From: Candidatus Multivorans sp.
GTDB lineage: Bacteria > Acidobacteriota > Thermoanaerobaculia > Multivoradales > Multivoraceae
Length of the DNA: 64,000 nucleotides
Reading direction: 5' to 3'
Assembly: GCA_965224025.1 (NCBI GenBank)
Contig: OZ245033.1
Coordinates: 1,792,001 to 1,856,000 of the forward strand
The notes under the pieces were generated by a model. That model had not been told where the DNA came from and searched no databases. It saw only the letters and a list, made by a program, of their open reading frames with translations. This document shows positions 5,905 to 19,417 of the stretch, one piece after another (within the stretch, counting starts at the first letter, position 1; each line of letters starts with the position of its first letter). A program made the position numbers and the translations under genes.

Positions 5905-6071
5905 CGCCGCGGACGCTACCGCAGAACAAACCGGCGCCGGTGCTCGGCTGCTGTCTCATTCCTGATGCCAACCTCCGCCCTCCCTTCCCGCCGAAGGATC
6001 CGGTGAAGCGCCACACCGGGATCCCAGCCGCTCAACACCCCCCAACGCCTTCCGTTCTCCGGAGCAAGCCC

Positions 6072-6643
6072 GTGCTGAGACGAACCACTGCGCCAATTGC
6101 AGGAGTGCTCGTCGCTCCGGCGACGCCGCCGATCGCGGGCTTGCAGGACACGGCGCCGGGCGACGAACGTCCGACCATGGCGGCAACCCGCGTCGAACAG
6201 GGGTCCACCATCGACGGAAATCTCAGCGACCGGGCATGGCGGCAGTCCGAGGTCGGCGGCAACTTCATCCAGCACGAGCCGGTCGACGGCGTACCGGCAA
6301 CCGAGCAGACCGAAGTGCGCGTAGCGTTCACGGACAGCACGATCTACTTCGGCATTGCCGCATTCGACGCGAACCCCGACGCGATCATCGCGAAGGAGAT
6401 GGAACGCGACAGCCGGATCTTTCAGGACGACTCGCTCCTGCTCCTGCTCGACACCTTCCACGACCGCCGCACAACGACGACTCCGAGGACCTGGGCCTCA
6501 ACGTCCGCCTGCACTGGATCTACAAGCCCGGCGCCGACCTGTTCGTCGTCCACAACGAGAACTGGATGGCCGAGGATCTTCGGCAGCGCTTCAGCACGCA
6601 CCGCCAGATCGCGGTCAAGTTCACCTACCTGATCCAGCCGTAG
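6072..6643 (+). pseudogene. CBM9-like/DUF5916 protein remnant
   Basis: N-terminal IDGNLSD…TEQTEVRV…DDSLLLLLDTFHDRR joins at ~6470, out of frame, to the terminal barrel strands LNVRLHWIYKPGADLFVVHN…KFTYL. Confidence 0.7.
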
Positions 6644-6922: not shown

Positions 6923-9900
6923 ATGCCAGAAGCGCAGAGCGAAAACCCTACCGGAACCTCACCCGCGACCAAGCCTTCGCGGCCGGCGCGCCGCAAGCGG
7001 CGCAGCCGCCCGCGCGGCAGGGCCCGCAGCGGACGTACCGTTGCGCTCCATCAACGCAGTGCGTCCCACTTTCGGCCGGAAGATCGGGAAGAAGGACAGA
7101 CCGTCTTCTCGAAGGGAGGCCTCAAGCTGGAGATCGAAGGCGCAAGCGCCCGGATTCTGATCGCGCCGCCGCCCGCCGGCGACAGCGCCGCCAATTCCGA
7201 GCTGAACCCGAATGGCGCCGCCAACGTCGAGCTCGACTGGTCCAGGGTTCCGGACGAACGCATCCTCCATGCCGTCTGCGGCTGCGAACAGTTCGCTGCC
7301 GGCGCCGCCTGCGGCCACATCTGGGCATCGCTGCTGCAACTCGCCGCGAACGAACCGAAGAGCCAGCCGTCAGGATCCGGCCGAGTCTCGCTACGCAAGA
7401 CGCGACCGCCCCAGGTGTCCATCCCGGGATCGGCCCTGAACGCGGTGCAGCCCGCGAGCGACGGCCCGGCAGAGGCTCCCCGTCCGGTCCGCCGCTCGCG
7501 TCGAAGTCGCAACCGGCGGCGGCGAACCTCCGCAACAACGAGCTGGCGTTCTGTTGTGGAGACCGTGCGCGAGGACATCGAACGGCAGGCTCAGCCGAAA
7601 AAGGCGGCGACTCCGAGGAACGCCCCGCCTCAGATCCAGCTCCTGCTCAACGCCGCCACCAGCCGCAACGCAGGCGGCCTGATGATCGACATCTTCGGAC
7701 GCAAGCAGAACCCGCAGGGCGAGTTCGGCAAGTTGAAGCGGCTGAGCATCGACCACGGAAAACTGGAAGATCTGTTCGGGCTGACAACGGACGGCACTGC
7801 TCATTCGGCGGGGAACGGAGTACCACCCGGCGCCGGGCCGGCCATGGTCACCGCGCTTCCGCCCGAAGTGCCGGTCCGCGCCAGCCGCAAGCGCAAGGGC
7901 GGCCGCGGCGCCCGCAACACCGGCCGTCCCCTCGTGCAACGGGTCTACGTGCCCATGAACTGGATCGGCCCCCTGCTGCCGCGGCTGAGCGCGGAGGGAC
8001 ACCTGTACTGGTGGGACGGCCGCTCACTCGGCGATCCGCGCGCGGTCACGATCGACGACGGCGAACCCTGGCGCCTTGCCCTGCAGTTGGAACTCGCGGC
8101 AGCCAGCCGGGTCCGGCTGCGCGGCATGCTCAAGCGCGGCGACGAAACCGTACCGCTGAGTCGTGCCGCACTGGTCCTGCCCTTCCCAAACGGCGACGGA
8201 GCGACCGCCGATGCCGGGTCGGACCGGCAGGGCAACATGCTGCTCCTGCTCGACGACGCCATCGGCCGGTTCCATCTCGATCCGCAGCGAGATCAGCCTT
8301 GGTACGCGCTGCTCGGCAACAGCGGCGATCTCGTGATCCCGGATGAAGACCTCGAGGCCGCGGTCACCAGCCTGCTGGAACTGCCTTCGTTGCCGCCACT
8401 CGAACTCCCGCAAGAGGTCTATCTGTCGGAGGAATCGCCCGTCCCTCAACCTCGTCTTGCGCTCGAACCAGAGGACACTCCGGAGTGGATGAACCCTCAG
8501 CTCGAGGCCCGACTCTCGTTCGGCTACGGCGGCCTGACCGTCGACGCGGGCGATCCGCGGTCCGCAGTCGTCGACTGGGAGGAGCACCGCTTCGTTCGCC
8601 GCAACCTCAAGACGGAGCAGGATGCGCTCGTCAGGCTGCTCGAACTTGGTCTGAAGCCGGTTGCCTCGAAGAGCGGGCACAGCCTGGAACTCGAACCGCG
8701 TGACCTGCCGGCGGTCGCGGAGCCTCTGCTCCTCGAGGGCTGGGAGGTTGAAGCCCACGGCGCCTCGATCCGATCGCCCAGTCCGCCGGCACTACGTATC
8801 GAGAGCGGTGTCGACTGGTTCGAGCTCAGCGGGCAGATCGACTTCGACGGCGACCGGATCGAGTTCTCGGAGATCCTCGCCGCAATCTCGGACGGTCGCC
8901 GGTCCGTCGAACTGGATGACGGCGCCAAGGGACTGCTCCCCGCCGCCTGGGTCGAGAACTACGGCTCTCTGAGTCAACTGGCACAGGACTCGAGCGAAGA
9001 TGGTCTGCGCTTCCTTCCCTCCCAGGCGCTACTTGTGGACGCGCTGCTGGCGGTAACGCCGCCGGTCAACGTGAGCAAGACCTTCGCCGAGCTGCGCGAG
9101 AAGCTGAGCACATTCTCTTCGATCAACCCCAGGAAGGAACCCCGCAGCTTCGTCGGCACGCTCCGTAACTACCAACGGCTCGGTCTGGGGTGGCTCTGCT
9201 TCCTGCGCGAATTCGGCCTCGGCGGCGTGCTCGCCGACGACATGGGGCTGGGCAAGACGATCCAGGCGCTGGCCCTGCTGCGCACGTACCGCACCGCGTC
9301 GAAGACGACGAAGTTGCCGTATCTGGTCGTCGCGCCGCGCAGCCTCGTCTACAACTGGATCGACGAGGCCGCCCGCTTCACGCCCGATCTGAAGGTCCTC
9401 GAGTACGCCGGACGCGACCGCGAGAACCTCCGTGACGAGTTCAAGACTGCCGACCTCGTGGTCACGACCTACGGCACCGTCCGCCGCGACATCGGGCACC
9501 TGGCCACGGTCGAGTTCGACACAGTGATCCTGGACGAGGCCCAGGCGATCAAGAACGCGGGTTCGCAGACCGCCAAGGCCTGCCGCCTGCTGGGCGGCCA
9601 GAACCGTCTCGCTCTCACAGGCACGCCGATCGAGAACCACCTCGGCGAGCTGGGTTCGATCTTCGAGTTCCTCAACCCGGGGCTGCTCGGTCGACTGCCG
9701 GCGCTCGACGTGCTGGCCGGCGGCCGGGCGCCGAGCCAGCGCGAACTGGCCCTGGTCGCCAAGGGTCTGCGGCCGTTCATCCTCCGCCGCAGCAAGGAGC
9801 AGGTGCTGCCCGACCTGCCCGAGAAGACCGAGCAGATCCTTCAGTGCACCCTGAACCCGAAGCAGCAGGACCTCTACGACCAGCTCCGCGCGAGCTATCG

Positions 9901-10540
9901 CGACAGCCTGTTGAAGCAGGTCGAGGACAAGGGAGTCGCCGGATCGACGATGCAGGTGCTCGAAGCGCTGCTGCGGCTCCGCCAGGTGGCCTGCCACCCG
10001 GGCCTGATCGACGAGGAGTGGGAGGACGCCGGGAGCGCCAAGCTCGAGTCCCTGTTCGAGCAGGTCTCCGAAGTCCTCGACGAGGGGCACAAGTGCCTCG
10101 TCTTCTCCCAGTTCACATCGCTCCTGGCCTACGTCCGCCGTCACCTCGAGGAGCAGGGCGTGCCCTACGCCTACCTCGACGGCCAGACTCAGAACCGGGG
10201 CGAAGTCGTCGAGCACTTCCAGACCGATCCGGACACCAACATCTTCCTGATCAGCCTGAAGGCCGGCGGCGTCGGCCTCAACCTGACCGCGGCCGGCTAT
10301 GTATTCCTGCTCGACCCGTGGTGGAACCCGGCCGTCGAGGCTCAGGCCATCGACCGCACCCACCGCATCGGCCAGACGCATCCCGTGTTCGCCTACCGAC
10401 TGATCGCGCGCGACACCGTCGAAGAGAAGATGCTCGACCTGCAGCGCTCGAAGCGGAAAATCGCCGACGCGATCCTCGAAGGCGGCGGATCGTCCCTGCG
10501 CGATCTGACCGCTGACGATCTGCGGCTGCTGCTGAGCTAG
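6923..10540 (+). CDS. SWIM zinc-finger SNF2/SWI2-family helicase
   Basis: CGC…CGH SWIM motif; LADDMGLGKT, ILDEAQAIKN, LTGTPIEN, SLKAGGVGLNLT, QAIDRTHRIGQ. Confidence 0.95.
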   Translation: MPEAQSENPTGTSPATKPSRPARRKRRSRPRGRARSGRTVALHQRSASHFRPEDREEGQTVFSKGGLKLEIEGASARILIAPPPAGDSAANSELNPNGAANVELDWSRVPDERILHAVCGCEQFAAGAACGHIWASLLQLAANEPKSQPSGSGRVSLRKTRPPQVSIPGSALNAVQPASDGPAEAPRPVRRSRRSRNRRRRTSATTSWRSVVETVREDIERQAQPKKAATPRNAPPQIQLLLNAATSRNAGGLMIDIFGRKQNPQGEFGKLKRLSIDHGKLEDLFGLTTDGTAHSAGNGVPPGAGPAMVTALPPEVPVRASRKRKGGRGARNTGRPLVQRVYVPMNWIGPLLPRLSAEGHLYWWDGRSLGDPRAVTIDDGEPWRLALQLELAAASRVRLRGMLKRGDETVPLSRAALVLPFPNGDGATADAGSDRQGNMLLLLDDAIGRFHLDPQRDQPWYALLGNSGDLVIPDEDLEAAVTSLLELPSLPPLELPQEVYLSEESPVPQPRLALEPEDTPEWMNPQLEARLSFGYGGLTVDAGDPRSAVVDWEEHRFVRRNLKTEQDALVRLLELGLKPVASKSGHSLELEPRDLPAVAEPLLLEGWEVEAHGASIRSPSPPALRIESGVDWFELSGQIDFDGDRIEFSEILAAISDGRRSVELDDGAKGLLPAAWVENYGSLSQLAQDSSEDGLRFLPSQALLVDALLAVTPPVNVSKTFAELREKLSTFSSINPRKEPRSFVGTLRNYQRLGLGWLCFLREFGLGGVLADDMGLGKTIQALALLRTYRTASKTTKLPYLVVAPRSLVYNWIDEAARFTPDLKVLEYAGRDRENLRDEFKTADLVVTTYGTVRRDIGHLATVEFDTVILDEAQAIKNAGSQTAKACRLLGGQNRLALTGTPIENHLGELGSIFEFLNPGLLGRLPALDVLAGGRAPSQRELALVAKGLRPFILRRSKEQVLPDLPEKTEQILQCTLNPKQQDLYDQLRASYRDSLLKQVEDKGVAGSTMQVLEALLRLRQVACHPGLIDEEWEDAGSAKLESLFEQVSEVLDEGHKCLVFSQFTSLLAYVRRHLEEQGVPYAYLDGQTQNRGEVVEHFQTDPDTNIFLISLKAGGVGLNLTAAGYVFLLDPWWNPAVEAQAIDRTHRIGQTHPVFAYRLIARDTVEEKMLDLQRSKRKIADAILEGGGSSLRDLTADDLRLLLS

Positions 10541-10645
10541 GCGCGGCAGAAACTGGGTGCGCGGGCCTTCTGGCCCGCATCCGGCGCGAAGCGCCGGTCT
10601 CTGGGAGTTCTACCGCGCCGGGGCGCATCGGCTTCTCCTGAAGAG

Positions 10646-10684
10646 GGCCTTCGGAACCCGAATCCGGGTTCCGAAGGCCTTTTT
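10646..10684 (+). terminator. Intrinsic terminator
   Basis: Perfect 15-bp stem GGCCTTCGGAACCCG/CGGGTTCCGAAGGCC followed by TTTTT, downstream of the SNF2 gene. Confidence 0.75.
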
Positions 10685-11059
10685 GCGTCTTAGTCAATGA
10701 ACGCAGCCGCTGAACCCGCGGCGCACAACTTCGACGCACAGCTCGACCCACACGTCCACAGGCCAGCCGACGACCGGCCGGCGCCGTCCCGAGAGAACGA
10801 TGACGCCTCTGAACTCCCCTCACAGCCCCCGCACACCGCTCCCGGACTCCCTCCCAAGCGAGCCGGACGCCTACACCAGCAGCGTCTTGAAACTTCGACT
10901 CGCTGAGCCTCCCACCCGGACCCTTGAAGCGCGCCTCGGGCACGCGCTCCAGATGCTCGGCGCCAGTTCAGCGCCGGTCATCTCCATGCTGCGCTTCCAG
11001 GCCCGCCCTCGCCCCTCGGCCCAGCGGCAAGCGAACCGCGGTCACCAGGGGCGCCGGCC

Positions 11060-11566
11060 ATGAACCGCCGCCGGCTCGCCATCGCGATCGTCGGTTTCGC
11101 CGTCATCGGCCCTATCGGCGCTTTGTTCTGGTTCGAGTCCAGGCTCGAAGCGAGACTGTCTCAGCGACCCGAAGTCGGTATGGTGTTCCCCGCCCTGCCG
11201 GGCCTCGCCGACGGCGAGTCCCTGCCGGCCTCTCCGGGCCGGCTTCGGGTCGTTACTTTCGCCAAGGCCGGCTGCGGCAACTGCGACCGCACGATCGCCA
11301 CGTTCCGGCGACTCGCGGTTGACGGCGAGCTCGACTTCGACCTGATCGCGGTCATCGCGGGCGCTGAAACGACCGAGCTCGACGACACGGCCACCCTGCG
11401 CCCGATCGCCGACCCGACCACTTCGATATCCAAGCGCTTCGGCGTGGTCCACGTACCGCTCGTCTTTCTGGTCGACGAGCACTCCCGGATCCGGGCCGTC
11501 ACAACCGGCGAACAGCCCGAGGCCGCCTGGCGCTCCTTTCTGGGAATCGAAACCGATGCGCTCTGA
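11060..11566 (+). CDS. Membrane-anchored thioredoxin-fold redoxin (TlpA/ResA-like)
   Basis: N-terminal RRR plus TM helix, CGNC motif, FGVVHVPLVFLVD cis-Pro strand. Confidence 0.85.
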   Translation: MNRRRLAIAIVGFAVIGPIGALFWFESRLEARLSQRPEVGMVFPALPGLADGESLPASPGRLRVVTFAKAGCGNCDRTIATFRRLAVDGELDFDLIAVIAGAETTELDDTATLRPIADPTTSISKRFGVVHVPLVFLVDEHSRIRAVTTGEQPEAAWRSFLGIETDAL

Positions 11567-11574
11567 TCCGTCTG

Positions 11575-12177
11575 ATGATGCGCTCTGATCCGTCTGATAA
11601 GGCCCGCCGTCGACGGTTGGCTGCCGCCGGGCTCATCTTCGCCACCGGCCTGATGGCGGTCGCAGTCCGCGCTGTCGGGCCCACCCTGGACCGCCTCGCC
11701 TGGGCAGCCTCCATCGACCCTTCGGCGCCGGGGCCCGGCCAGATCGTTCGACAACAAAAACGCTCCGATTGCGGCCCGGCCGCGCTCAAGATGATCCTCG
11801 ATCACCACGGCGTCGCCAGCGCCACGCTCGCCGAGCTGGAGGTCGCCACCGGCACAGGCCCGGACGGCACCAGCATGCTCGCCCTGAAGAAGACCGCCGA
11901 GCAACGCGGTCTCGCCAGCCAGGGACTCCGCCTGCCGGTTGAGCGGCTGTACGACATGCCGATGCCCGCGATCGCCCATGTCCACGGCGATCACTTCGTC
12001 GTCATTCGCAGCGCCGGCGAGGAACTGGTCATCGACGACCCGTCCCTGGGCCGCCTGCGCATGAGCACCAGGACCTTCGAACGTTCCTGGGACGGCGTCC
12101 TCCTGGCCTTCACCGGCGGTCCACCAACGTTTTCGCGGACGGAAAGAAACCCGTCCATTTCGCCCAGCAACCCTTAG
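11575..12177 (+). CDS. Stand-alone C39-family cysteine peptidase with N-terminal signal/anchor
   Basis: QQKRSDCGPAAL (Q, catalytic C), HFVVI (H), IDDPS (D), FERSWDG. No fused ABC domain. Starts RRRRLAAAGLIFATGLMAVAVRA. Confidence 0.92.
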   Translation: MMRSDPSDKARRRRLAAAGLIFATGLMAVAVRAVGPTLDRLAWAASIDPSAPGPGQIVRQQKRSDCGPAALKMILDHHGVASATLAELEVATGTGPDGTSMLALKKTAEQRGLASQGLRLPVERLYDMPMPAIAHVHGDHFVVIRSAGEELVIDDPSLGRLRMSTRTFERSWDGVLLAFTGGPPTFSRTERNPSISPSNP

Positions 12178-12318
12178 CCCCTCAAAGGGAGAACAACCAT
12201 CAACCACTCATCCAAACGCGCCGTCGGACCGATGACCGGCGCCAACTCTTCGACCGACCCGAACACCATGAACCACAACGCCCCCTTCACACACACAACA
12301 CCGAAAGGACGCCCCTCC

Positions 12319-12642
12319 ATGAAGATGCGTATCGCCCTCCTATCCGGACTTCTGACTCTCGCCGCCGGCGCCGCCCTGGCGATTCCGACGACACAGAGCG
12401 TGACGGCGGCCGACCAGGACCAGGACCAGGTCCCTACCGCCTGGGACGAACTCCTCACCCCATCCATCGTCGGCCCCACCCTCGAACCTGACGCCGTGGA
12501 ACTGGCCGTCTACGGCCCTTGCGGGTGCATTCCGATCCCTGGCTGCCCGTTCCCGATTCCTTTCCCGCGGCCATGGCCTCCGGGCGGCCCCATCTTCAAT
12601 CCGTTCCCGGTCCCGGGTCCCTGCGGCCCCTGCCCGTTCTAG
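12319..12642 (+). CDS. Secreted precursor-like peptide 1 with Pro/Cys-rich tail
   Basis: RBS GAAAGGA; signal peptide MKMRIALLSGLLTLAAGAALA; acidic linker; tail PCGCIPIPGC…GPCGPCPF. Confidence 0.75.
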   Translation: MKMRIALLSGLLTLAAGAALAIPTTQSVTAADQDQDQVPTAWDELLTPSIVGPTLEPDAVELAVYGPCGCIPIPGCPFPIPFPRPWPPGGPIFNPFPVPGPCGPCPF

Positions 12643-12693
12643 CTGCCCGTGCTCGCCCTACATTCCACAAGCACCACGAAGGACATTCACTCA

Positions 12694-13023
12694 ATGATCA
12701 GACTCGCATCGATTGTTGTCAGCCTCTCGCTTCTTGCGGGAGCTTCAGCCTCTGCCGCGCCGCTGGCGCTCGAGACTTCCACCACCACGCCCCAAACAAG
12801 TGACTTCGCTATCGAGAGCGCCTTTCCACTCGCGATGAACGAGCTGGCTCAACTGACGGGAGGCGCACCTGACTGGGTCGTGGCGGGTTGCCTCGCTGTC
12901 GGTGGCTTCGGCGGTGGGCGCGCTCTTGCACTGAGGCTGGCGAAACGCGTCGTGGTTGGCGTTGTATGCCCTTGGTGCGGGACGGCGCTGATCGTTGTCG
13001 GAATAGGCTGTCTTCTCATGTAG
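12694..13023 (+). CDS. Bacteriocin-like precursor 2 (signal peptide + double-Gly leader + hydrophobic core)
   Basis: RBS GAAGGA; signal peptide ending ASASA; LAMNELAQLTGG motif; 52-aa core with 4 Cys. Confidence 0.8.
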   Translation: MIRLASIVVSLSLLAGASASAAPLALETSTTTPQTSDFAIESAFPLAMNELAQLTGGAPDWVVAGCLAVGGFGGGRALALRLAKRVVVGVVCPWCGTALIVVGIGCLLM

Positions 13024-13108
13024 AACCGTCGCCGCAATCCGTGTGAAAGCGAATCCCTCGGTACAAAGGACCATCAGACTCAGAACAAGCTCAAGAAAGG
13101 AAGTGACC

Positions 13109-13405
13109 ATGAAGACACCGATCGTCTTCTTCGTTCTCGCCGCCGTTACTCTGGCTCCACTGACAGGGCCATTCACCGCAACAGTGCTCGACTCCGTGTC
13201 ACCCCCGCAATCGGCAGACACAATGCGGCCCATTTCTGACCAGACCGCGGAGGCAATCCGAGGTGCGCTGGCGTGGAAGTGGAAGTGCGCGATCGTCGCG
13301 GCCTCAGTAGGAGCCGGCCTGTTCGCAGCCGCTTTCGTGACCGCCGGGGGTGCCGCGATAGCTGCACCCTTCCTGCTGAACGCCGCAGCGTTCTGCCTCA
13401 TCTGA
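13109..13405 (+). CDS. Bacteriocin-like precursor 3 (signal peptide + GA-type leader + hydrophobic core)
   Basis: RBS GAAAGGA; hydrophobic N-terminus; ISDQTAEAIRGA motif; 45-aa Ala/Gly-rich core with 2 Cys. Confidence 0.78.
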   Translation: MKTPIVFFVLAAVTLAPLTGPFTATVLDSVSPPQSADTMRPISDQTAEAIRGALAWKWKCAIVAASVGAGLFAAAFVTAGGAAIAAPFLLNAAAFCLI

Positions 13406-13520
13406 ACGAACGGGACGCGTGCTAGCTCCGTGAACACTCGGCGATGGTCCGAGCGACCATCTCCTCCAACCGGGTAGTCTGCACCAGACCCGTACAAGCC
13501 GCACAAACCAGGGAGGCGCG

Positions 13521-15143
13521 ATGGCGACAACAGGAACAACAATGACCTCGATCCGTAGCATCCGGGCTCTGGCCGGGACCTATTGGACCGTCCACACCCG
13601 GGCGCTGCGGACGGACCGGTCGATGGTTCTCCTGATCTTGATGGCTCTGCCGAGCACCGCCGTCGCGCTCTTCCTCTCCGTCTTCTTGCCGCATCTGATC
13701 TTCGGCGTGGAAGACCCCGCGCTGCGCGGCGGACTGCTCACCGTCGCGCTTTCTCTGGTGGCCGCAATCTGGCTCTTCGTGCAGGTCTTCAGCCAGCAGT
13801 CCATCAGTTGGCTGCTCGATATCCGGCCGCTCATCACGCTTCCGTTCGGGTTCGGCACGCTCTATCGACTACGCCTCGCCGGCTATCTGGCCGGTGCGTG
13901 GCTGCTGGCTCTTGGCCTGGCCGGGCCGTACTTTGCCGTCGTCCGGTCAACCAGCGTGGTCGGCTTTGCCGCGTTGACCGCAGGCATCTGCCTGGCAGTG
14001 GTGATTCAGGGCCAGATCGTGTCCATCGTGTCGTGGCAACGGGACCGGCTGGTCGAGGGAATCATGGGCTCCCTGGTCGTGCTCGTCGTCATCTGCGCGA
14101 TGTACTACGGACTCTACTGGGGGGTTCTACTGAAGGCAGGCGAGATCCGTGGCGACGACATCCTGGGATGGGTGCGGAACTCCACCCTGGTCCGAGCCGC
14201 CGCCTGGACGCCGGCCGGATTGCTGGCCGGCATGCTGAACGACCCCGGCGGCTGGTGGGAGAACGGAATTCGCGTCCTGGGTTTGTGTACTTATGCCGTC
14301 CTCATCGGTATCTGCGACCGGGAGTTGCTGCGCAGATCGGGATTCGGCCCCGCCCCGAGTACACCCCGCGTCAAGCATCCCACCCTGCCGTTGCCGACAC
14401 TGCTGCGCCGGTGGCCCGCCTTGTCGCCGGGAGGCGTCCTGACATTGATCGAGATCGAATGCGGCGCCAGGGACCGTGGCCTCCGCTGGTCAATGATCAT
14501 CGCCCTCGCCCTTTTCCTCTTTCTCACAGTCGTCATCGGAACTCCGGTAGTCGCCGTCGTTGGTTCCCTGACGCTTGCATGCACGTTGCTGACATCCCAC
14601 CGTGCCGGGCGCCTCTTGCCCACCTGTCGTCTCTGGTCCGAGTCGTTCGCCCTCCCCGTTACCCTCATCGGGGCTCTACGTGCCATGGGCCAGGCCTCCA
14701 GCCTCGTCGCGATCGGTTTCGCTTGCGCAGCCCTCGCGGCATCCTTCGTTCGCTTCGGCTGGTTCGGCTGGCTCCACGTCGGCTATATCGTCCTCCATTC
14801 TTCCGCCGCGATCTTCTTTGCCGACGCGGCCTACGGGTGGTTCGACGCGCGCTGGCAGGCACCTGTCGGAACAGAGGGAACGGACCATCGCGCAGGGAAG
14901 ATCCTGGCCCAAAACATGTTGGGGCTTAGTCTCCTTCTCCCCTTTGTCCTCGTCCTCTTTCTCTTTACGGTCAATGAAGGAACTCCGGGGCGTCTGGCGC
15001 TCAGCATCCTCCTTTCGATCTACGTCGTCCTCGCCGTCACGGCAGGGTTGGCCTTCCGGGCATCGCAACGCCGTTTGGTCGCTTCCAAGGGCCTCGACGC
15101 GCTCCTGGTGCGGAACTCCACGGTGTCAGATTGTCCCAGTTGA
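13521..15143 (+). CDS. Multi-TM putative ABC exporter permease
   Basis: 540 aa with about 12 hydrophobic helices; LLDIRPLITLPFGFGTLYRLRL and AAWTPAGL motifs; ABC ATPase downstream. Confidence 0.7.
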   Translation: MATTGTTMTSIRSIRALAGTYWTVHTRALRTDRSMVLLILMALPSTAVALFLSVFLPHLIFGVEDPALRGGLLTVALSLVAAIWLFVQVFSQQSISWLLDIRPLITLPFGFGTLYRLRLAGYLAGAWLLALGLAGPYFAVVRSTSVVGFAALTAGICLAVVIQGQIVSIVSWQRDRLVEGIMGSLVVLVVICAMYYGLYWGVLLKAGEIRGDDILGWVRNSTLVRAAAWTPAGLLAGMLNDPGGWWENGIRVLGLCTYAVLIGICDRELLRRSGFGPAPSTPRVKHPTLPLPTLLRRWPALSPGGVLTLIEIECGARDRGLRWSMIIALALFLFLTVVIGTPVVAVVGSLTLACTLLTSHRAGRLLPTCRLWSESFALPVTLIGALRAMGQASSLVAIGFACAALAASFVRFGWFGWLHVGYIVLHSSAAIFFADAAYGWFDARWQAPVGTEGTDHRAGKILAQNMLGLSLLLPFVLVLFLFTVNEGTPGRLALSILLSIYVVLAVTAGLAFRASQRRLVASKGLDALLVRNSTVSDCPS

Positions 15144-15204
15144 ACCGCTGCAACGCCAAGCTGGTTCACTCACCCAAGAGGAGCGGGCCAGAATGTGCAA
15201 GTAC

Positions 15205-15395
15205 GTTTGACGGGCGCCATACGGGCGGGGTAGCGTCCGTCTGTTGGTCGTCAGAGGCGCAGTGGGCCTGCGAGCCGGACCCCCTGCCAGACCTAGCCGT
15301 CGCCCCTGGGCTTAGGGTCGCTCCCTTCGTCAGGCGAGTCTGCGGGGGGTCTCGTTTGCCCTGTGCAGTGCGGCCGATTCGGCCCGCCACCAGTC
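15205..15395 (+). promoter_or_regulatory. Sigma70-like promoter plus conserved leader, copy 1
   Basis: TTGACG-N18-TAGCGT followed by GTTGGTCGTCAG…GTGGGCCTGCGAGCCGG..CCCCTGC; homologous to 18489-18680. Confidence 0.5.
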
Positions 15396-15448
15396 CAGGT
15401 GCCGGCCCACCTTCCCCCAAAGCCGGCTAGAGCGACTCCAAGGACTCG

Positions 15449-16727
15449 ATGGCGACCTTCACGAACCCGAGCAGCCGGGCGGACCTGCTGCTGACCCTTG
15501 CGCGGCTGTCGTTCCCGGACGCCGTACGGCGGGCCAACCAGCCCGTGGCGGTGGCGATCCTGATCGCCGTTCTGTTTCTGGTGTTCGCGACCGTCGCCAC
15601 ATTCGGCCTTCTGCCCGTTCTGTTCACCCTAGAGAGCGACGCCCTGCAGCGCAATCTGCTGAACCTGATGGCCTGCTCCGCTACGGCGTTCGGGCTGCTC
15701 GCCCAGGTGGCACTCCGAGCACCGACCACGTGGCTGCTCGATCTGGACGACCTGCTGCGGCTGCCGGTGGGTTTCCGAGACCTGTACGGTCTCCGTTTCG
15801 CTCTGAGTACGATGGGGTACTGGCTCCTTGTTCTCGGTCCCGCAGGCGCCTATCTCACGGTCATGAGGTCGGGAGGGATCGCCGGAGTACCCGTCACGTT
15901 GCTGGGCATCGTGAGCCTGGTCTGGATCTTCGGCCGTGTGGTTGCGGTCTTGTCGCTCTTCGCCGACCGTTGGGTCGAAAGTGCGCTCACCATACTGGCC
16001 ATGATGATGATCATGGCGCTCTGCCAGTTTGCGATCCTCGTCGGCGTAATGGCCTTCGGAGGAGAGCTCGATTCCGAAGGGGTCGCTCGGGCAATCGAAG
16101 GTTCTTCAGCTCTCGGCGGCCTCGGCTACACGCCGCCGGGACTTGTCGCCGGAATCGTCCACGAACCGGGCTGGTCGGCGTCGAATCTGGCGAGACTCGG
16201 AAGTCTGTTTGCCGCTCTCGGCGTCTTGATCGTGCTGGAGAACCGGCTCCTTCTTCGCAGCTACCTCGATCATCCCGGTGGTGACCGCCGCGCCGCTTCT
16301 GGAGTACTGCCTCTGGCGCGGATGCTCCGCGGGTCGCGCCGCCTCAGTTCCTTGGGCGTTCTCACGGTGCTCGAGACGGAATGCCTGTTGCGTGCCCAAG
16401 AGGATACCGGCGACCATCAGGCAGGACGCGACGAGGAAGAACGGCCAGCCGAACCAGTCGAGCGGCGCGAAGTTCGGGGCCTCCCTTCTGGTTCCGCAGC
16501 TGGCCCTTGGCCCAGCCTTCCTCACCTTCCTTCTGTACGTGCTCTACGACGGGCAGCGCGTCAGCCCACTCACTGCCGGCCTCATCGCCGCCGCGGTCCT
16601 CCTCCTCGCTGCCGTTGCCGCATACGCCTCGCCCCGGCGGCAGGAACGCGTGCTCAAGGCGCGCGGACGCGAACTCCTGCTCGAAGACCCCGCCGAAGAC
16701 CCTCCGAAGCTACCGAGCCCCTCCTGA
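15449..16727 (+). pseudogene. Second permease paralogue with internal deletion/frameshift at ~16395
   Basis: Aligns with 13521-15143 (LLDLDDLLRLPVGFRDLYGLRF; LGYTPPGL; VLTVLETEC). The C-terminus is in another frame and roughly 120 aa are missing relative to the paralogue. Confidence 0.7.
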
Positions 16728-16758
16728 CCACTCACAACCACGAGGAACTCCGAAACTC

Positions 16759-17547
16759 ATGGAAGCAATCAAGGCAGACAACCTGACTCGGTCCTTCGGC
16801 GGCAACGTCGTCGTCGACAGCGTGGATCTCGACGTCCAGGAGGGTCAGATCCTGGGGTTCGTCGGTCCCAACGGGGCGGGCAAGACGACGACCTGGTCGA
16901 TGCTGACCGGGCTGCTCAAGCCCACGAGCGGCACGGTCCGCCTGCTGGGCAAACCGGTCGACGTGAACGACACGGAGCTCAAGCAGCAGCTCGGCATCGT
17001 GCCGGACCAGAGCATCCTCTTCGAGAGCTTGACCGGAGAGGAGTTGCTGCTGTCGTACGCCCGCATCTACGGCCTGAGCCGCGAAGACGCCGGGCAACGA
17101 ACAGACGAGGCGCTCGCCGTTTTCGACCTCGAGGAGGCCGCCAAGCGACCGATCACCACCTACTCCCACGGTATGAGAAAGAAGATTCGCCTCGCTGCGG
17201 CGACCCTGCACGCGCCGCGAGTTCTGTTTCTCGACGAGCCGTTCGAGGGCATGGACGCCCTCAGCGCGCGCACCGTCATGTCGATCCTGCAGCAGATGGC
17301 CGAGCAGGACGGCGTCGCCGTGTTCCTGACGTCCCACATGCTCGACTACGTCGAACGCGTGTCGAGCCATATCGCCGTCATCCGGGACGGCAAGGTGCTC
17401 CTGTCCTGCTCCCGGGAGGAGTTCCGCGAGCTGCCCGACGCCGAGGGAGAAGACGGCGCCGGTCGGCTCGAGAACCTCATTCTCAGTATCTCCAGACGCG
17501 AGAGGTTCTCCCGCCTCTCGTGGATCGGCAACAGGAGCAAGACATGA
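16759..17547 (+). CDS. ABC transporter ATP-binding protein (ABC-2 type)
   Basis: GPNGAGKTT Walker A, YSHGMRKK signature variant, LFLDEPFEGMD Walker B, TSH switch. Confidence 0.95.
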   Translation: MEAIKADNLTRSFGGNVVVDSVDLDVQEGQILGFVGPNGAGKTTTWSMLTGLLKPTSGTVRLLGKPVDVNDTELKQQLGIVPDQSILFESLTGEELLLSYARIYGLSREDAGQRTDEALAVFDLEEAAKRPITTYSHGMRKKIRLAAATLHAPRVLFLDEPFEGMDALSARTVMSILQQMAEQDGVAVFLTSHMLDYVERVSSHIAVIRDGKVLLSCSREEFRELPDAEGEDGAGRLENLILSISRRERFSRLSWIGNRSKT

Positions 17548-18323
17548 CCGAGCCTTTCCAAGACACCGACGGCCTGCGCCGGACCGGGCCGACCGGAGAC
17601 CAGCCGCAGGACCGCGGAGGTTGGCCTAGCGCCTTGATCGGGATCGTCACCTCGCCGCGAACGAGCTTCGAGATCGTGCGCCGGAGGGCACCCTGCCTCG
17701 GTGTTGTCGTCCTCCTCCAGGCCAGCGCCGTCTGCCTTGCACTGCTGTCGTCATCGTTCGGCCTCCAGGTGCGGCGTGCCCAACTCACTGAGATGATGCC
17801 GGGACAGCCGGACCAGGTCGAAGCCTTGATGGCCCAGGCGGAGCAGTCGATGGCTGTGACGCGATCGATCGCGGCCGGCGGCGCCGCTCTCCTGACGGCT
17901 ATCGTCTTGCTCGTGCAGGCCGTGTTCGTCTGGCTCCTGGCGATTGCGTTCCAGGGCCGCCCGCGGTTCGGACAAGCCCTCTCGCTGATGGCGCACGTCG
18001 GCGTGATCGCCCTCCTCAGGAACTGGGCCAACTTTGGCCTCCTCCACTTTCGGGACCTGAGTGCGATCCGATCGCCGCGGGACCTGCAGGTCCCAATGGG
18101 AATCGACCTCTTCCTGGCAGGAGACAGTGCCGCGCTCAACGCGGTCTGGGCAAGCATCAACCCGTTCACGATCTGGCTCCTCGCACTGCTTGGCCTGGGC
18201 GCCGCGGCGGTCCTCGGTCTGTCGCAAAGGCAGGGTTTCACGCTCGCCGGCATCTACTGGGCGGCGACGACCACGCTCTCCGCGGCAGCGGCAGGCGTGG
18301 CTAGCCGCCTCACGCCCGGGTAG
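17544..18323 (+). CDS. Yip1-domain membrane protein
   Basis: IVTSPRTSFEIV…, about 5 TMs, INPFTIW motif; ATGA overlap with the ATPase stop. Confidence 0.85.
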   Translation: MTEPFQDTDGLRRTGPTGDQPQDRGGWPSALIGIVTSPRTSFEIVRRRAPCLGVVVLLQASAVCLALLSSSFGLQVRRAQLTEMMPGQPDQVEALMAQAEQSMAVTRSIAAGGAALLTAIVLLVQAVFVWLLAIAFQGRPRFGQALSLMAHVGVIALLRNWANFGLLHFRDLSAIRSPRDLQVPMGIDLFLAGDSAALNAVWASINPFTIWLLALLGLGAAAVLGLSQRQGFTLAGIYWAATTTLSAAAAGVASRLTPG

Positions 18324-18488
18324 CCGCCTCGCCTCCGGCGATCGCCGGGGACGAGCCGAAACCCGCCGGTCACCGCCATCCAGCGCCGGGGCGCGCCCCA
18401 GGGGCTGGATCGCGGGTGGGCCCGTGCCAGCTCGAAGGAACACGACCCTTCCTGGACGGCCGGCCCGATCGGCCTGCGGCAGACCGCT

Positions 18489-18680
18489 CGTTTGACGCTT
18501 ACAGACCGACGCGGTAACTTCGCTTGGTTGGTCGTCAGCAGCGTAGTGGGCCTGCGAGCCGGGTCCCCTGCTGAATAGAAAAGCCGATTCAAGGTGCAGG
18601 GTCGCTCCCGGCGCTCGGCAAATAGGCAGGCGTACGTGCCCACTGTGCATGGCGACCAACAAGGCCCGGCGCCATCTCTG
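18489..18680 (+). promoter_or_regulatory. Sigma70-like promoter plus conserved leader, copy 2
   Basis: TTGACG-N17-TAACTT followed by GTTGGTCGTCAG…GTGGGCCTGCGAGCCGG..CCCCTGC…AGGGTCGCTCCC. Confidence 0.5.
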
Positions 18681-18798
18681 CCCCGAGGCCCGCACCTCCA
18701 CAGGGCAGGCGCAGGGCAACGAGCCCGAAAGCGGCCCAAGTCGGTGCTGCTGGTACAAGGGGATCTCCCATCAGGTGCAGTCAAGGAGGAGAGACACG

Positions 18799-19417
18799 AT
18801 GCAGCGCATACTTCGTACAGGCGCCGCGGCGGCAGCCGCAATCGTCTTGCTCGCGGCGCCGGCCGCGACAGCCGCCGAGGACGACGCGACCCCGCGCACG
18901 GCCTCGGGGCGCCCTGACTTCACCGCCAACTACGATGTCGCGACGCTCACGCCGCTCAACCGCCCGGCTGAGTTCGGCGCCAACCTCTTCCTGGCGCCGG
19001 AGCAGGCGAACGAGATCGTGGAGAGGGAGCGTCAACGGGTCGCTTCCCGCGCAGCCAAGCGGCGAATCACCGAACCGCCACCACCGGGCGGCGCGCCGCC
19101 GATCGGCCTCGGCGACGAGTTCCGCGAGACCAGCGGCGCCGGCAACGTCGGCGGCTACAACAACTTCTGGACCGACCGCGGCAGCGACGTGTTTTCCATC
19201 GACGGCAAGTCAGGGCAAGGACCTCCTGTACGGTTTCACGGTCGAGGACCCCACGGTCTGGACCGCGCCCTGGAGCGGCGAGTACCTGTGGCCGGGAACG
19301 GAAACCAAGGTCTACGAATACGCCTGCCACGAAGGCAACTACGCCATGGGCGGCATCCTCGAGGGGGCGCGCCTGCTGGAAGACGAGAAGAGGACCGCCG
19401 CCTCCGGCGGCGAGTAG
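18799..19417 (+). pseudogene. Secreted hypothetical protein (PRTxxGxPD…YEYACHEGNY family), internally deleted
   Basis: The N-terminal half joins at ~19205, out of frame, to FTVEDPTVWTAPW…YEYACHEGNY; related to 19894-20715. Confidence 0.65.

Follow-up and report, generated by a model that had tools for sequence, protein, structure and literature searches.

Cys-bracketed hydrophobic peptides with Sec-type starts and double-glycine-type leaders, encoded beside an anchored C39 peptidase in Candidatus Multivorans: a candidate bacteriocin-like system of the Acidobacteriota

The window studied here, a stretch of 64,000 nucleotides from Candidatus Multivorans sp. (assembly GCA_965224025.1, contig OZ245033.1, positions 1,792,001 to 1,856,000 of the forward strand), contains a compact run of nine reading frames on the + strand, situated between an SNF2-type helicase (6923-10540) and unrelated downstream genes, in which two small precursor genes, P2 and P3, follow the gene of a stand-alone C39 cysteine peptidase. 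Each precursor joins a signal-peptide-like start, a leader closed by a GG or GA motif, and a hydrophobic core bracketed by cysteines. The reading we prefer, to which we give slightly better than even chances, is that P2 and P3 are exported by Sec, closed by disulfides and cut in the periplasm by the anchored C39 peptidase, that the products are bacteriocin-like membrane peptides, and that the ABC transporter (ATP-binding cassette) and the Yip1-domain protein of the same run serve in self-protection or expulsion. A wider proposal, whose chances we put a little below even, is that the locus belongs to an undescribed bacteriocin-like class spread across the Acidobacteriota and matured wholly outside the cytoplasm, through Sec, a disulfide-closed, “pseudo-circular” helical hairpin, an anchored C39 peptidase and exchangeable cassettes.

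The P2 gene begins with an ATG at 12694 and stops at 13021-13023, and its product can be divided into a signal-peptide-like segment (residues 1-21, 12694-12756), an acidic leader (22-57, 12757-12864) and a core (58-109, 12865-13020). The N-terminus, MIR-LASIVVSLSLLAGASASA/AP, has a short basic n-region, an uncharged hydrophobic run and a classic ASA site; the leader, with a net charge of -4, terminates in LAMNELAQLTGG at G56-G57 (codons 12859-12864), which places L at -12, E at -8, L at -7 and -4, and G at -2 and -1; and the core of 52 aa, APDWVVAGC...VCPWC...GIGCLLM, has a net charge of +3 and cysteines at 66, 92, 95 and 106, an internal CPWC included. P3 (ATG 13109, stop 13403-13405), with a Shine-Dalgarno sequence, AAGGAAG, 6-7 nt upstream, starts in the same manner, with a basic n-region that is short and a hydrophobic run free of charges, and is composed of a signal-peptide-like segment (about 1-24, 13109-13180), a leader (25-53, 13181-13267) that terminates in ISDQTAEAIRGA at G52-A53 (13262-13267), and a core (54-98, 13268-13402) of 45 aa, LAWKWKC...AAFCLI, with cysteines at 60 and 96. 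Small-xxx-small (GxxxG-like) runs are found in both cores, and each protein has three hydrophobic stretches of membrane-spanning character.

The coordinates, the two motifs, the lengths of the cores and their terminal cysteines are all found in the sequence as a preliminary description of this DNA had given them. That description had also assigned one cysteine near each end to both cores, which is accurate for P3 (60 and 96), while P2 has four; and it had invoked the recognition consensus L(-12)..EL..I.GG, which P2 follows (L-12, E-8, L-7, L-4) and P3 follows in part, departing from it at -7 and -8. The possibility that P2 and P3 are paralogues of one another was considered and rejected (hhalign probability 0.6%).

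Conservation of the motif and of the cysteines in homologues, on which the preliminary description had staked its reading beforehand, extends down to 19-25% identity. In a word-indexed search of 5.8 billion protein clusters, P2 gave 10 matches (eight full-length homologues, a 59-aa fragment and one other peptide type) and P3 gave 11 (nine full-length homologues at 53-67% identity, the window protein itself and one frameshifted copy, P0021). Among the P2 homologues so obtained G56, C66, C95 and C106 are invariant and C92 is kept in at least 90%; in P3 all nine full-length homologues retain the GA, as does the window protein, C60 is invariant in 11 of 11 rows, C96 is present in all full-length homologues, and LAWKWKC is nearly invariant. 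A profile search of 1.84 billion representatives yielded only nine P2-family clusters, 19-55% identical to the window protein, all of which share M1, G56, C66, G71, R85, C95 and C106. All nine have four cysteines, the third alternating between a CPxC and a CGxxC position, and in the family G-2 is invariant over proteins that are 19-76% identical. The signal-peptide-like start is present in every homologue of P2 and P3 recovered by sequence search alone. Pairwise dN/dS values (ratios of nonsynonymous to synonymous divergence) against same-length orthologues lie at 0.43-0.57, and judged by them P2 and P3 are coding genes under moderate constraint.

A separate observation concerns the history of the P2 gene: between window 12694-13020 and positions 6001-6327 of the related locus L003, synonymous divergence is 0.11-0.12 in the part encoding signal peptide and leader and 0.76 in the core. 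The gene has the look of a mosaic whose parts were joined by recombination close to the cleavage motif, at the boundary of leader and core.

In agreement with the C39-type recognition leader proposed in the preliminary description, a C39 peptidase is encoded two genes upstream of P2, at about 520 bp, with the P1 gene in between. The protein matches PF03412 with an E-value of 2.4e-31 (108.8 bits, cut-off 22); it begins with RRRR and a 17-aa hydrophobic segment, followed by the C39 domain at residues of about 56-180, with a complete catalytic set (Q60, C66, H140, D155), and it aligns with LahT150 (6mpz, 8.9e-14), PCAT1 (4ry2) and ComA (3k8u) through the catalytic Cys, His and Asp. From the 96 homologues of 110-350 aa returned by a search, 33 stand-alone ones were aligned: C66, H140 and D155 are invariant among them, Q60 is kept in at least 90%, and the N-terminal basic cluster with a single hydrophobic segment is present in 33 of 33. 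Whether this segment acts as an anchor under the positive-inside rule or as a signal peptide, the catalytic domain is predicted to be extracytoplasmic. A complex prediction of the C39 domain (46-186, 32 rows) with the P2 leader (24-70, 10 rows) gave 0.40, 0.44 and 0.40, and controls gave 0.00, 0.23 and 0.00, a margin below the one required, and the result is used neither way.

The first gene of the run encodes a thioredoxin-like protein with the same type of N-terminus as the C39 peptidase; it, too, is predicted to face the periplasm. It matches Pfam Redoxin with an E-value of 3.5e-5, at 24.1 bits just below the cut-off of 26.6, with weak matches to Thioredoxin_2/AhpC-TSA in Pfam and to MauD/ResA/DsbE-like models in NCBIfam, and no relative in the PDB was found by sequence. 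Orthologues hold the same position in L003, L009, L013, L053 and L054, and in L049 and L051 an anchored CxxC protein of the AhpC-TSA/Redoxin type (by Pfam) lies ahead of the C39 gene. Since the peptidase and the thioredoxin-like protein are both anchored, cleavage and disulfide formation are predicted to take place outside the cytoplasm; and because substrate, protease and oxidoreductase would then meet in the periplasm, a Sec signal on P2 and P3 is expected rather than odd. The N-terminal signal peptide, which the preliminary description had correctly noticed and called atypical, is in fact constant across the whole family, and the anchored C39 peptidase would account for it.

If we accept this arrangement, maturation could have the following course: (i) Sec would take each precursor across the membrane by its N-terminal signal peptide, which signal peptidase may remove, although in P3 the signal may remain as a membrane tether until the C39 peptidase cuts; (ii) in the periplasm the cysteines at the ends of the core, together with the internal CPxC pair in P2, would be oxidised, closing a helical hairpin, and the anchored thioredoxin-like CxxC protein may aid this oxidation or keep the thiol of the protease reduced; (iii) the anchored, periplasm-facing C39 peptidase would recognise the acidic amphipathic leader and cut after G56-G57 in P2 and after G52-A53 in P3; (iv) the released peptides, hydrophobic and neutral to cationic, would be bacteriocin-like and membrane-active; (v) and finally, the permease Perm1, of a type with 12 transmembrane segments (12-TM), together with the ABC ATPase and the Yip1 protein, may expel the peptides from the inner membrane of the producer, as self-protection, as release, or as both.

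The rival closest to textbook knowledge is that of a canonical class II bacteriocin, in which the hydrophobic stretch would be part of a long leader, cleavage by the C39 peptidase would be cytoplasmic and export would fall to the operon's ABC transporter. One operon does hold a GG-type motif, a C39 peptidase and an ABC transporter; however, the peptidase is unfused, and by the positive-inside rule its basic N-terminus with one hydrophobic segment, present in 33 of 33 homologues, would put the domain outside; the ATPase belongs to the DrrA/ABC-2 type and not to the exporter type that is fused to C39 domains; and the precursors have n-, h- and c-regions like those of Sec signals. Moreover, a PF03412 search of the whole genome gave only two matches, in open frames of 269 and 282 aa, and no C39-ABC fusion exporter (PCAT) among them. 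This rival we hold to be very improbable.

The second of these matches is another stand-alone anchored C39 peptidase (214 aa, 53% identical), at G000:C1:3369475-3370470 (L002/L052), followed by one precursor of 100 aa with a signal peptide, the motif …AELADITGRG… and a core of 45 residues that has cysteines at positions 7 and 42. This locus adjoins a fragment of an IS5-like transposase, with no ABC genes in the 16 kb covered.

The association of such precursors with C39 genes was surveyed in the surroundings of P2 homologues and of stand-alone C39 genes, both within the genus and in other families of the Acidobacteriota. A filter demanded a signal-peptide-like start, the motif [LIVMA]xG[GASTRE], and a hydrophobic core with a Cys 4-12 aa past the cut and another among its last 6 residues. 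It collected 38 distinct precursors, and their features outside the filter fit a double-glycine leader: L, M or A stands at -7 in 33 of the 38 and E or D at -8 in 18, a net negative charge is found over the 30 aa that precede the cut in 36, the net charge of the core is zero or positive in 31, and the cysteines of the core number two in 29 precursors and four in nine, never an odd number. The first of them stands 4-11 residues past the cut and the last 0-5 residues from the C-terminus. At -1 there is A in 16, G in 13, T in 4, S in 2 and R in 1, and in two precursors E was scored, where the regular expression cut one residue beyond the GG; G-2 itself was part of the filter. All 38, again under the filter on the start, have a basic n-region, an uncharged hydrophobic run (median 23 aa) and a spacer of 16-63 aa up to the motif. 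The cores are very hydrophobic and 41-56 aa long, with a median G+A fraction of 0.38, and most loci encode two or three different peptides. In L046 (G385:C10, about 7770-8103, minus strand), one of two stand-alone C39 loci outside the genus where the filter was negative, a signal peptide lies in one frame and “…GDVVGG GFWSGLGC…” in an overlapping one; this is a frameshifted gene or a sequencing error.

With the same filter, precursors were found in 9 of 9 same-genus loci, in 5 of 7 stand-alone loci outside the genus and in 0 of 13 loci with a C39-ABC fusion, an unequal comparison in that fusion genes fill most of the locus and leave less free space. C39 matches at E<=1e-8 occur in 85 of 401 Acidobacteriota genomes, and outside the genus most of the matches listed sit in long frames (about 700 aa or more), as for fusions, the best-scoring ones being stand-alone. 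Within the genome of the window itself (5.14 Mb, six frames) our own heuristic gave 1,585 signal-peptide-like open reading frames (ORFs) of 45-190 aa. A strict pattern, with hydrophobic residues at -7 and -4, G at -2, G, A, S or T at -1, a Cys 4-12 aa later, another in the last 6 residues and a hydrophobic core, retained a single one of the 1,585, which is P2; a relaxed pattern retained nine, of which four have hydrophobic cores, and three of these four (P2, P3 and the peptide of the second locus) adjoin one of the two C39 genes. By this count the pattern of P2 and P3 is beyond chance.

The fourth of these ORFs with a hydrophobic core is located, with a sister peptide, in a third locus (G000:C1:2696431-2699161, minus strand; similar in L012), where two peptides of 98 and 97 aa, with signal peptide, GG motif and bracketing cysteines, alternate with two ABC-2-like membrane proteins of about 230-310 aa, downstream of a 927-aa ORF. 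Because no C39 gene is nearby, these peptides would have to use either of the two C39 peptidases encoded elsewhere.

The same data bear on two further rivals. According to the first, P2 and P3 would be small integral membrane proteins, composed of an N-terminal helix and a C-terminal hairpin, that escape cleavage at the GG or GA and work in the ABC transporter as subunits, accessory or regulatory; the C39 peptidase would act on P1, on the transporter or on something else. The three hydrophobic stretches of membrane-spanning type in each protein and the pairing of a particular permease with each peptide set would suit such subunits, and cleavage at the GG or GA is so far a prediction; but the invariant G-2 closes an acidic amphipathic segment, in the register of double-glycine leaders, in families that are otherwise unrelated (by the hhalign comparison above), the peptides always directly adjoin a catalytically complete C39 peptidase, the even numbers of cysteines bracket exactly the part after the motif, and P1 is without a comparable motif. 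We regard it as improbable. According to the second rival, the mature peptides would be secreted pheromones of the ComC/BlpC kind, released by the C39 peptidase and perceived by a receptor encoded elsewhere in the genome. Double-glycine leaders are also used by peptide pheromones, and the locus is accessory within the genus; against this, the cores have 41-56 aa, are very hydrophobic and number two or three different ones per locus, and no histidine kinase or response regulator was found in or beside the operon, so that we see little chance of it.

How the locus behaves among related genomes agrees better with the antagonistic role that our preferred reading gives to P2 and P3. Of 36 genomes of the same genus P2 occurs in 8, and of 24 from the order's other families in 0; the C39 gene, in contrast, occurs in all 9 of the same-genus genomes that were sampled. 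In the nearest relative, L054, whose C39 peptidase is 94% identical, the flanks are 81-95% identical in DNA, and the part of the window from 12642 to 15198 (P2-P3-Perm1) has no DNA counterpart; in its place there are two different peptides with signal peptide and GG motif, directly followed by an intact permease of the Perm2 type. Typed by eye from their N-termini, permeases of the Perm1 type follow P2/P3 in 5 of 5 loci in view and those of the Perm2 type follow other peptide types in 4 of 4. Where a locus is accessory and patchy, with peptides that can be exchanged, a processing chassis that stays constant and membrane partners specific to the peptides, it bears the hallmarks of antagonism (bacteriocin-immunity) loci. 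A gene of the P3 type comes after one of the P2 type in 7 of 7 loci (the window, L003, L006, L007, L008, L013 and L017); that the two might act together as a two-peptide toxin fits this co-occurrence and the two or three peptides per locus, and linkage explains both equally well.

Perm1 has no family in Pfam or NCBIfam; in the clusters nearest to it in the ESM Atlas (score 0.96), 10-21% of the members carry 12TM_1, ABC_export or ABC_tran_2, which is a lead only, and its AF2 model (11 rows, 13-81% identity; pLDDT 64.9) is made entirely of helices, with nothing in the PDB at E<=0.001 by Foldseek (best 0.21). The ATPase matches PF00005 (2.4e-30), its best NCBIfam model being the drrA subfamily (219.8 bits, below the cut-off of 312), and the Yip1 protein matches PF04893 (1.5e-9, 38.4 bits, cut-off 28.6). 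At the extended loci from other families the genes recur in the order C39 peptidase, two precursors, a permease of about 500-540 aa, the ABC ATPase and, in some, a Yip1 protein: BLAST relatives of the ATPase lie 2-3 kb from the stand-alone C39 gene in 8 of 8 extended non-genus loci (L044-L051), and those of the Yip1 protein come after the ATPase in L045, L047, L048 and L053, which includes 3 of the 8. The usual place of a small immunity gene is taken here by the large, peptide-specific permease.

As regards Perm2, a tblastn comparison with the intact 532-aa orthologue of L003 covers only residues 1-317, ends near 16399 and finds no more in any frame; the remaining open frame is Arg/Pro-rich, and a C-terminal-like ending (…ELLLEDP…) lies in another frame, at 16278-16727. 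The gene is probably truncated or frameshifted, or the assembly is in error at this point. The peptide types that are presumably cognate to Perm2 are absent from this genome.

A further rival accepts export and cleavage by the C39 peptidase and denies toxicity: the products would be structural or surface components, such as fibre or amyloid-like matrix subunits or envelope-embedded peptides, which the ABC system would deliver or assemble, in the manner of the Fap and Fil systems. As presented in PMC5557850, FapD is a periplasmic C39 peptidase of the functional-amyloid (Fap) system of Pseudomonas whose active-site Cys is needed. It offers a precedent for the periplasmic, catalytically active C39 peptidase of our preferred reading, but it is the only characterised one and belongs to amyloid secretion; the same source describes the substrate and recognition sequence of FapD as unclear, the class as uncharacterised and the Fap proteins as being without canonical GG leaders. 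Our C39 peptidase resembles FapD (PMC5557850) in its predicted location outside the cytoplasm and in substrates predicted to reach the periplasm by Sec, and differs from it in the clear GG-type leaders encoded next door and in the lack of Fap genes in the neighbourhood. The partial NCBIfam matches to the FapD model NF058616 (3.4e-13) and to FilB, a putative pilus peptidase (9e-6), and cores rich in Gly and Ala would also suit a structural role. However, these scores are far under the cut-offs (49.4 bits against 330, and 25.2 against 475), no FapF-like or usher-like outer-membrane gene is found nearby, and a patchy distribution, peptides swapped among close relatives and permeases specific to the peptide are features typical of loci for antagonism, and not of structural genes. 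The probability we attach to structural components is therefore low.

It remains to compare the arrangement with known peptide systems, taking P2 and P3 as bacteriocin-like. In the textbooks, a double-glycine leader signals cleavage in the cytoplasm that is coupled to export by an ABC transporter, and lactococcin G, plantaricin EF/JK and microcin V are PCAT-processed examples. With the PCAT-dependent class II bacteriocins and microcins the Multivorans precursors share a leader that ends in G-(G/A/S), with hydrophobic residues at -4, -7 and -12 and an acidic one at -8, and with these and class IIb also an anionic leader ahead of a hydrophobic, often cationic core, GxxxG-like spacing, adjacent unrelated peptide genes in one operon and a C39 peptidase with the same catalytic set. 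They differ from them in the Sec-type signal peptide and the spacer of about 20-45 aa ahead of the leader; in a C39 peptidase that is separate, anchored and predicted to face the periplasm, instead of being the cytoplasmic N-terminal domain of an exporter; in an export set of a permease of about 540 aa, a DrrA-like ATPase and a Yip1 protein; in cores bracketed by cysteines; and in that no accessory, adaptor, TolC-type or small immunity gene was found in the operon. Judged from the genes, both features that define PCAT systems are absent: the fusion of C39 peptidase and ABC exporter, and a leader that forms the extreme N-terminus with no Sec signal ahead of it. The likeness to class IIb bacteriocins drawn in the preliminary description holds for the adjacent unrelated pair and its GxxxG-type motifs, and fails where a PCAT and a small immunity gene would be expected. 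In the full-text literature that was searched, no description was found of precursors with a Sec signal and a GG motif that go with an anchored C39 peptidase, and the recognition logic of the double-glycine leader appears to have been moved here to the periplasm, with the Sec signal first and a separate anchored protease.

Two other systems offer partial analogies. Circular bacteriocins are hydrophobic helical peptides whose ends are joined by a peptide bond; the present cores would be a functional analogue, as peptides of about 45-70 aa with joined ends, the closure here being a putative disulfide instead of a peptide bond and circularisation genes being absent from the locus. SdpC, from which the cannibalism toxin SDP derives, bears a Sec signal peptide and is processed in a second step. 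SDP, as described in PMC4887032, is a 42-aa peptide toxin with one intramolecular disulfide, against which its producer, Bacillus, is protected by YknWXYZ, an ABC transporter that includes a Yip1-family protein. The combination of a disulfide peptide (predicted here) and an ABC system with a Yip1 protein is common to both cases (PMC4887032), a likeness in the kinds of component. On the other side, SDP is matured through SdpA/SdpB and not by a C39 peptidase, and the YknYZ pump belongs to the MacB type and has a membrane-fusion protein; in Multivorans the permease is unclassified and 12-TM-like, and there is no fusion protein.

Several points weigh against our preferred reading. Signal peptides, topology and cleavage sites were assigned by our own heuristics and the positive-inside rule, and not by a trained predictor. 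In P3 the leader follows the consensus at I-12 and I-4 and departs from it at A-7 and T-8, and the signal-peptidase site is not clear-cut because the c-region is Pro-rich; at -1, the T of four and the R of one of the 38 surveyed precursors are unusual for C39 substrates. The AF2 model of P2 (11-row alignment) is helical, with helices predicted at 4-17, 48-54, 60-69, 71-86 and 93-108, and its mean pLDDT of 48.4 is too low for a hairpin claim or a fold search; the cores could equally be stable transmembrane hairpins. None of the bacteriocin models of Pfam and NCBIfam matches P2 or P3; in favour there is a weak lead, the nearest named ESM Atlas cluster of P3 being a Blp class II bacteriocin with a score of 0.79, under the 0.9 level. 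A BLAST search for the thioredoxin-like gene is blank in 6 of the 8 extended non-genus loci (L049 and L051 have one by Pfam). Between P3 and Perm1, or elsewhere in the operon, there is no further small ORF with homologues that could be an immunity gene. Lastly, the exit of a very hydrophobic peptide from a diderm cell is left unexplained, since the operon has no outer-membrane or adaptor gene, and none for export was found downstream (17.5-25.9 kb) or upstream of it, where the search met the Yip1 gene, unassigned secreted-looking proteins, a helicase-like gene, the SNF2 helicase and a DPP-IV peptidase.

The nine frames are collected in Table 1. Of their products, P1, P2, P3, Perm1 and Perm2 have no model in Pfam or NCBIfam.

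Table 1. Reading frames of the peptide locus, in window coordinates.
Feature	Position	Strand	Remarks
Thioredoxin-like protein, 168 aa	11060..11566	+	N-terminal basic-plus-hydrophobic anchor (MNRRRLAIAIVGFAVIGPIGALFWF); CGNC motif
Stand-alone C39 cysteine peptidase, 200 aa	11575..12177	+	PF03412
P1, small secreted protein, 104 aa	12328..12642	+	Signal peptide; Pro/Cys-rich C-terminal half
P2 precursor, 109 aa	12694..13023	+	Signal-peptide-like start, GG leader, four-Cys core
P3 precursor, 98 aa	13109..13405	+	Signal-peptide-like start, GA leader, two-Cys core
Perm1, all-helical polytopic membrane protein, 540 aa	13521..15143	+	Putative permease partner of the ABC ATPase
Perm2, second permease, paralogous to Perm1	15449..16786	+	Apparently truncated or frameshifted here
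ABC transporter ATP-binding protein, 263 aa, DrrA/ABC-2 type	16756..17547	+	PF00005
Yip1-domain membrane protein, 267 aa	17520..18323	+	PF04893; last gene of the module

P1 has no GG-type motif, its mature part varies strongly between genomes and its tail ends in PF; P1-like genes are placed after the C39 gene in the same-genus loci. In L022 and L023 the signal peptide and N-terminal region of a P1-type protein run on, in one frame, into the leader and core of a different peptide type, a fusion which suggests that the export part is modular.

A segment of 45 nt, present in exactly two copies in the genome (15243-15287 and 18527-18571, 89% identical), lies in the intergenic region of Perm1 and Perm2 and just past the Yip1 gene, bracketing the Perm2-ATPase-Yip1 block; it has no Rfam match and could be a site of recombination or of regulation. 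Rfam gave 0 matches at E<=0.1 over 10400-19200, and a scan of 10500-18500 for promoters and terminators returned a single promoter-like site, on the wrong strand, and terminator-like matches that are intragenic, with nothing usable.

If the wider proposal is true, sets of peptides would move together with a cognate 12-TM ABC permease on a constant chassis of thioredoxin-like protein, C39 peptidase, ATPase and Yip1 protein, a cassette structure that makes the specificity between peptide and permease directly testable. In these peptides the C39 family's periplasmic branch would have its first clear natural substrates, and the extracytoplasmic C39 peptidases would be provided with defined substrates and a cleavage rule. 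The peptides would also reveal a maturation route that genome-mining rules based on PCATs miss, and a two-enzyme toolkit, the anchored C39 peptidase and the oxidoreductase, for obtaining leader-free, disulfide-bonded peptides in the periplasm. For the Acidobacteriota, a poorly cultured phylum, this would mean a reservoir of disulfide-closed hydrophobic peptides.

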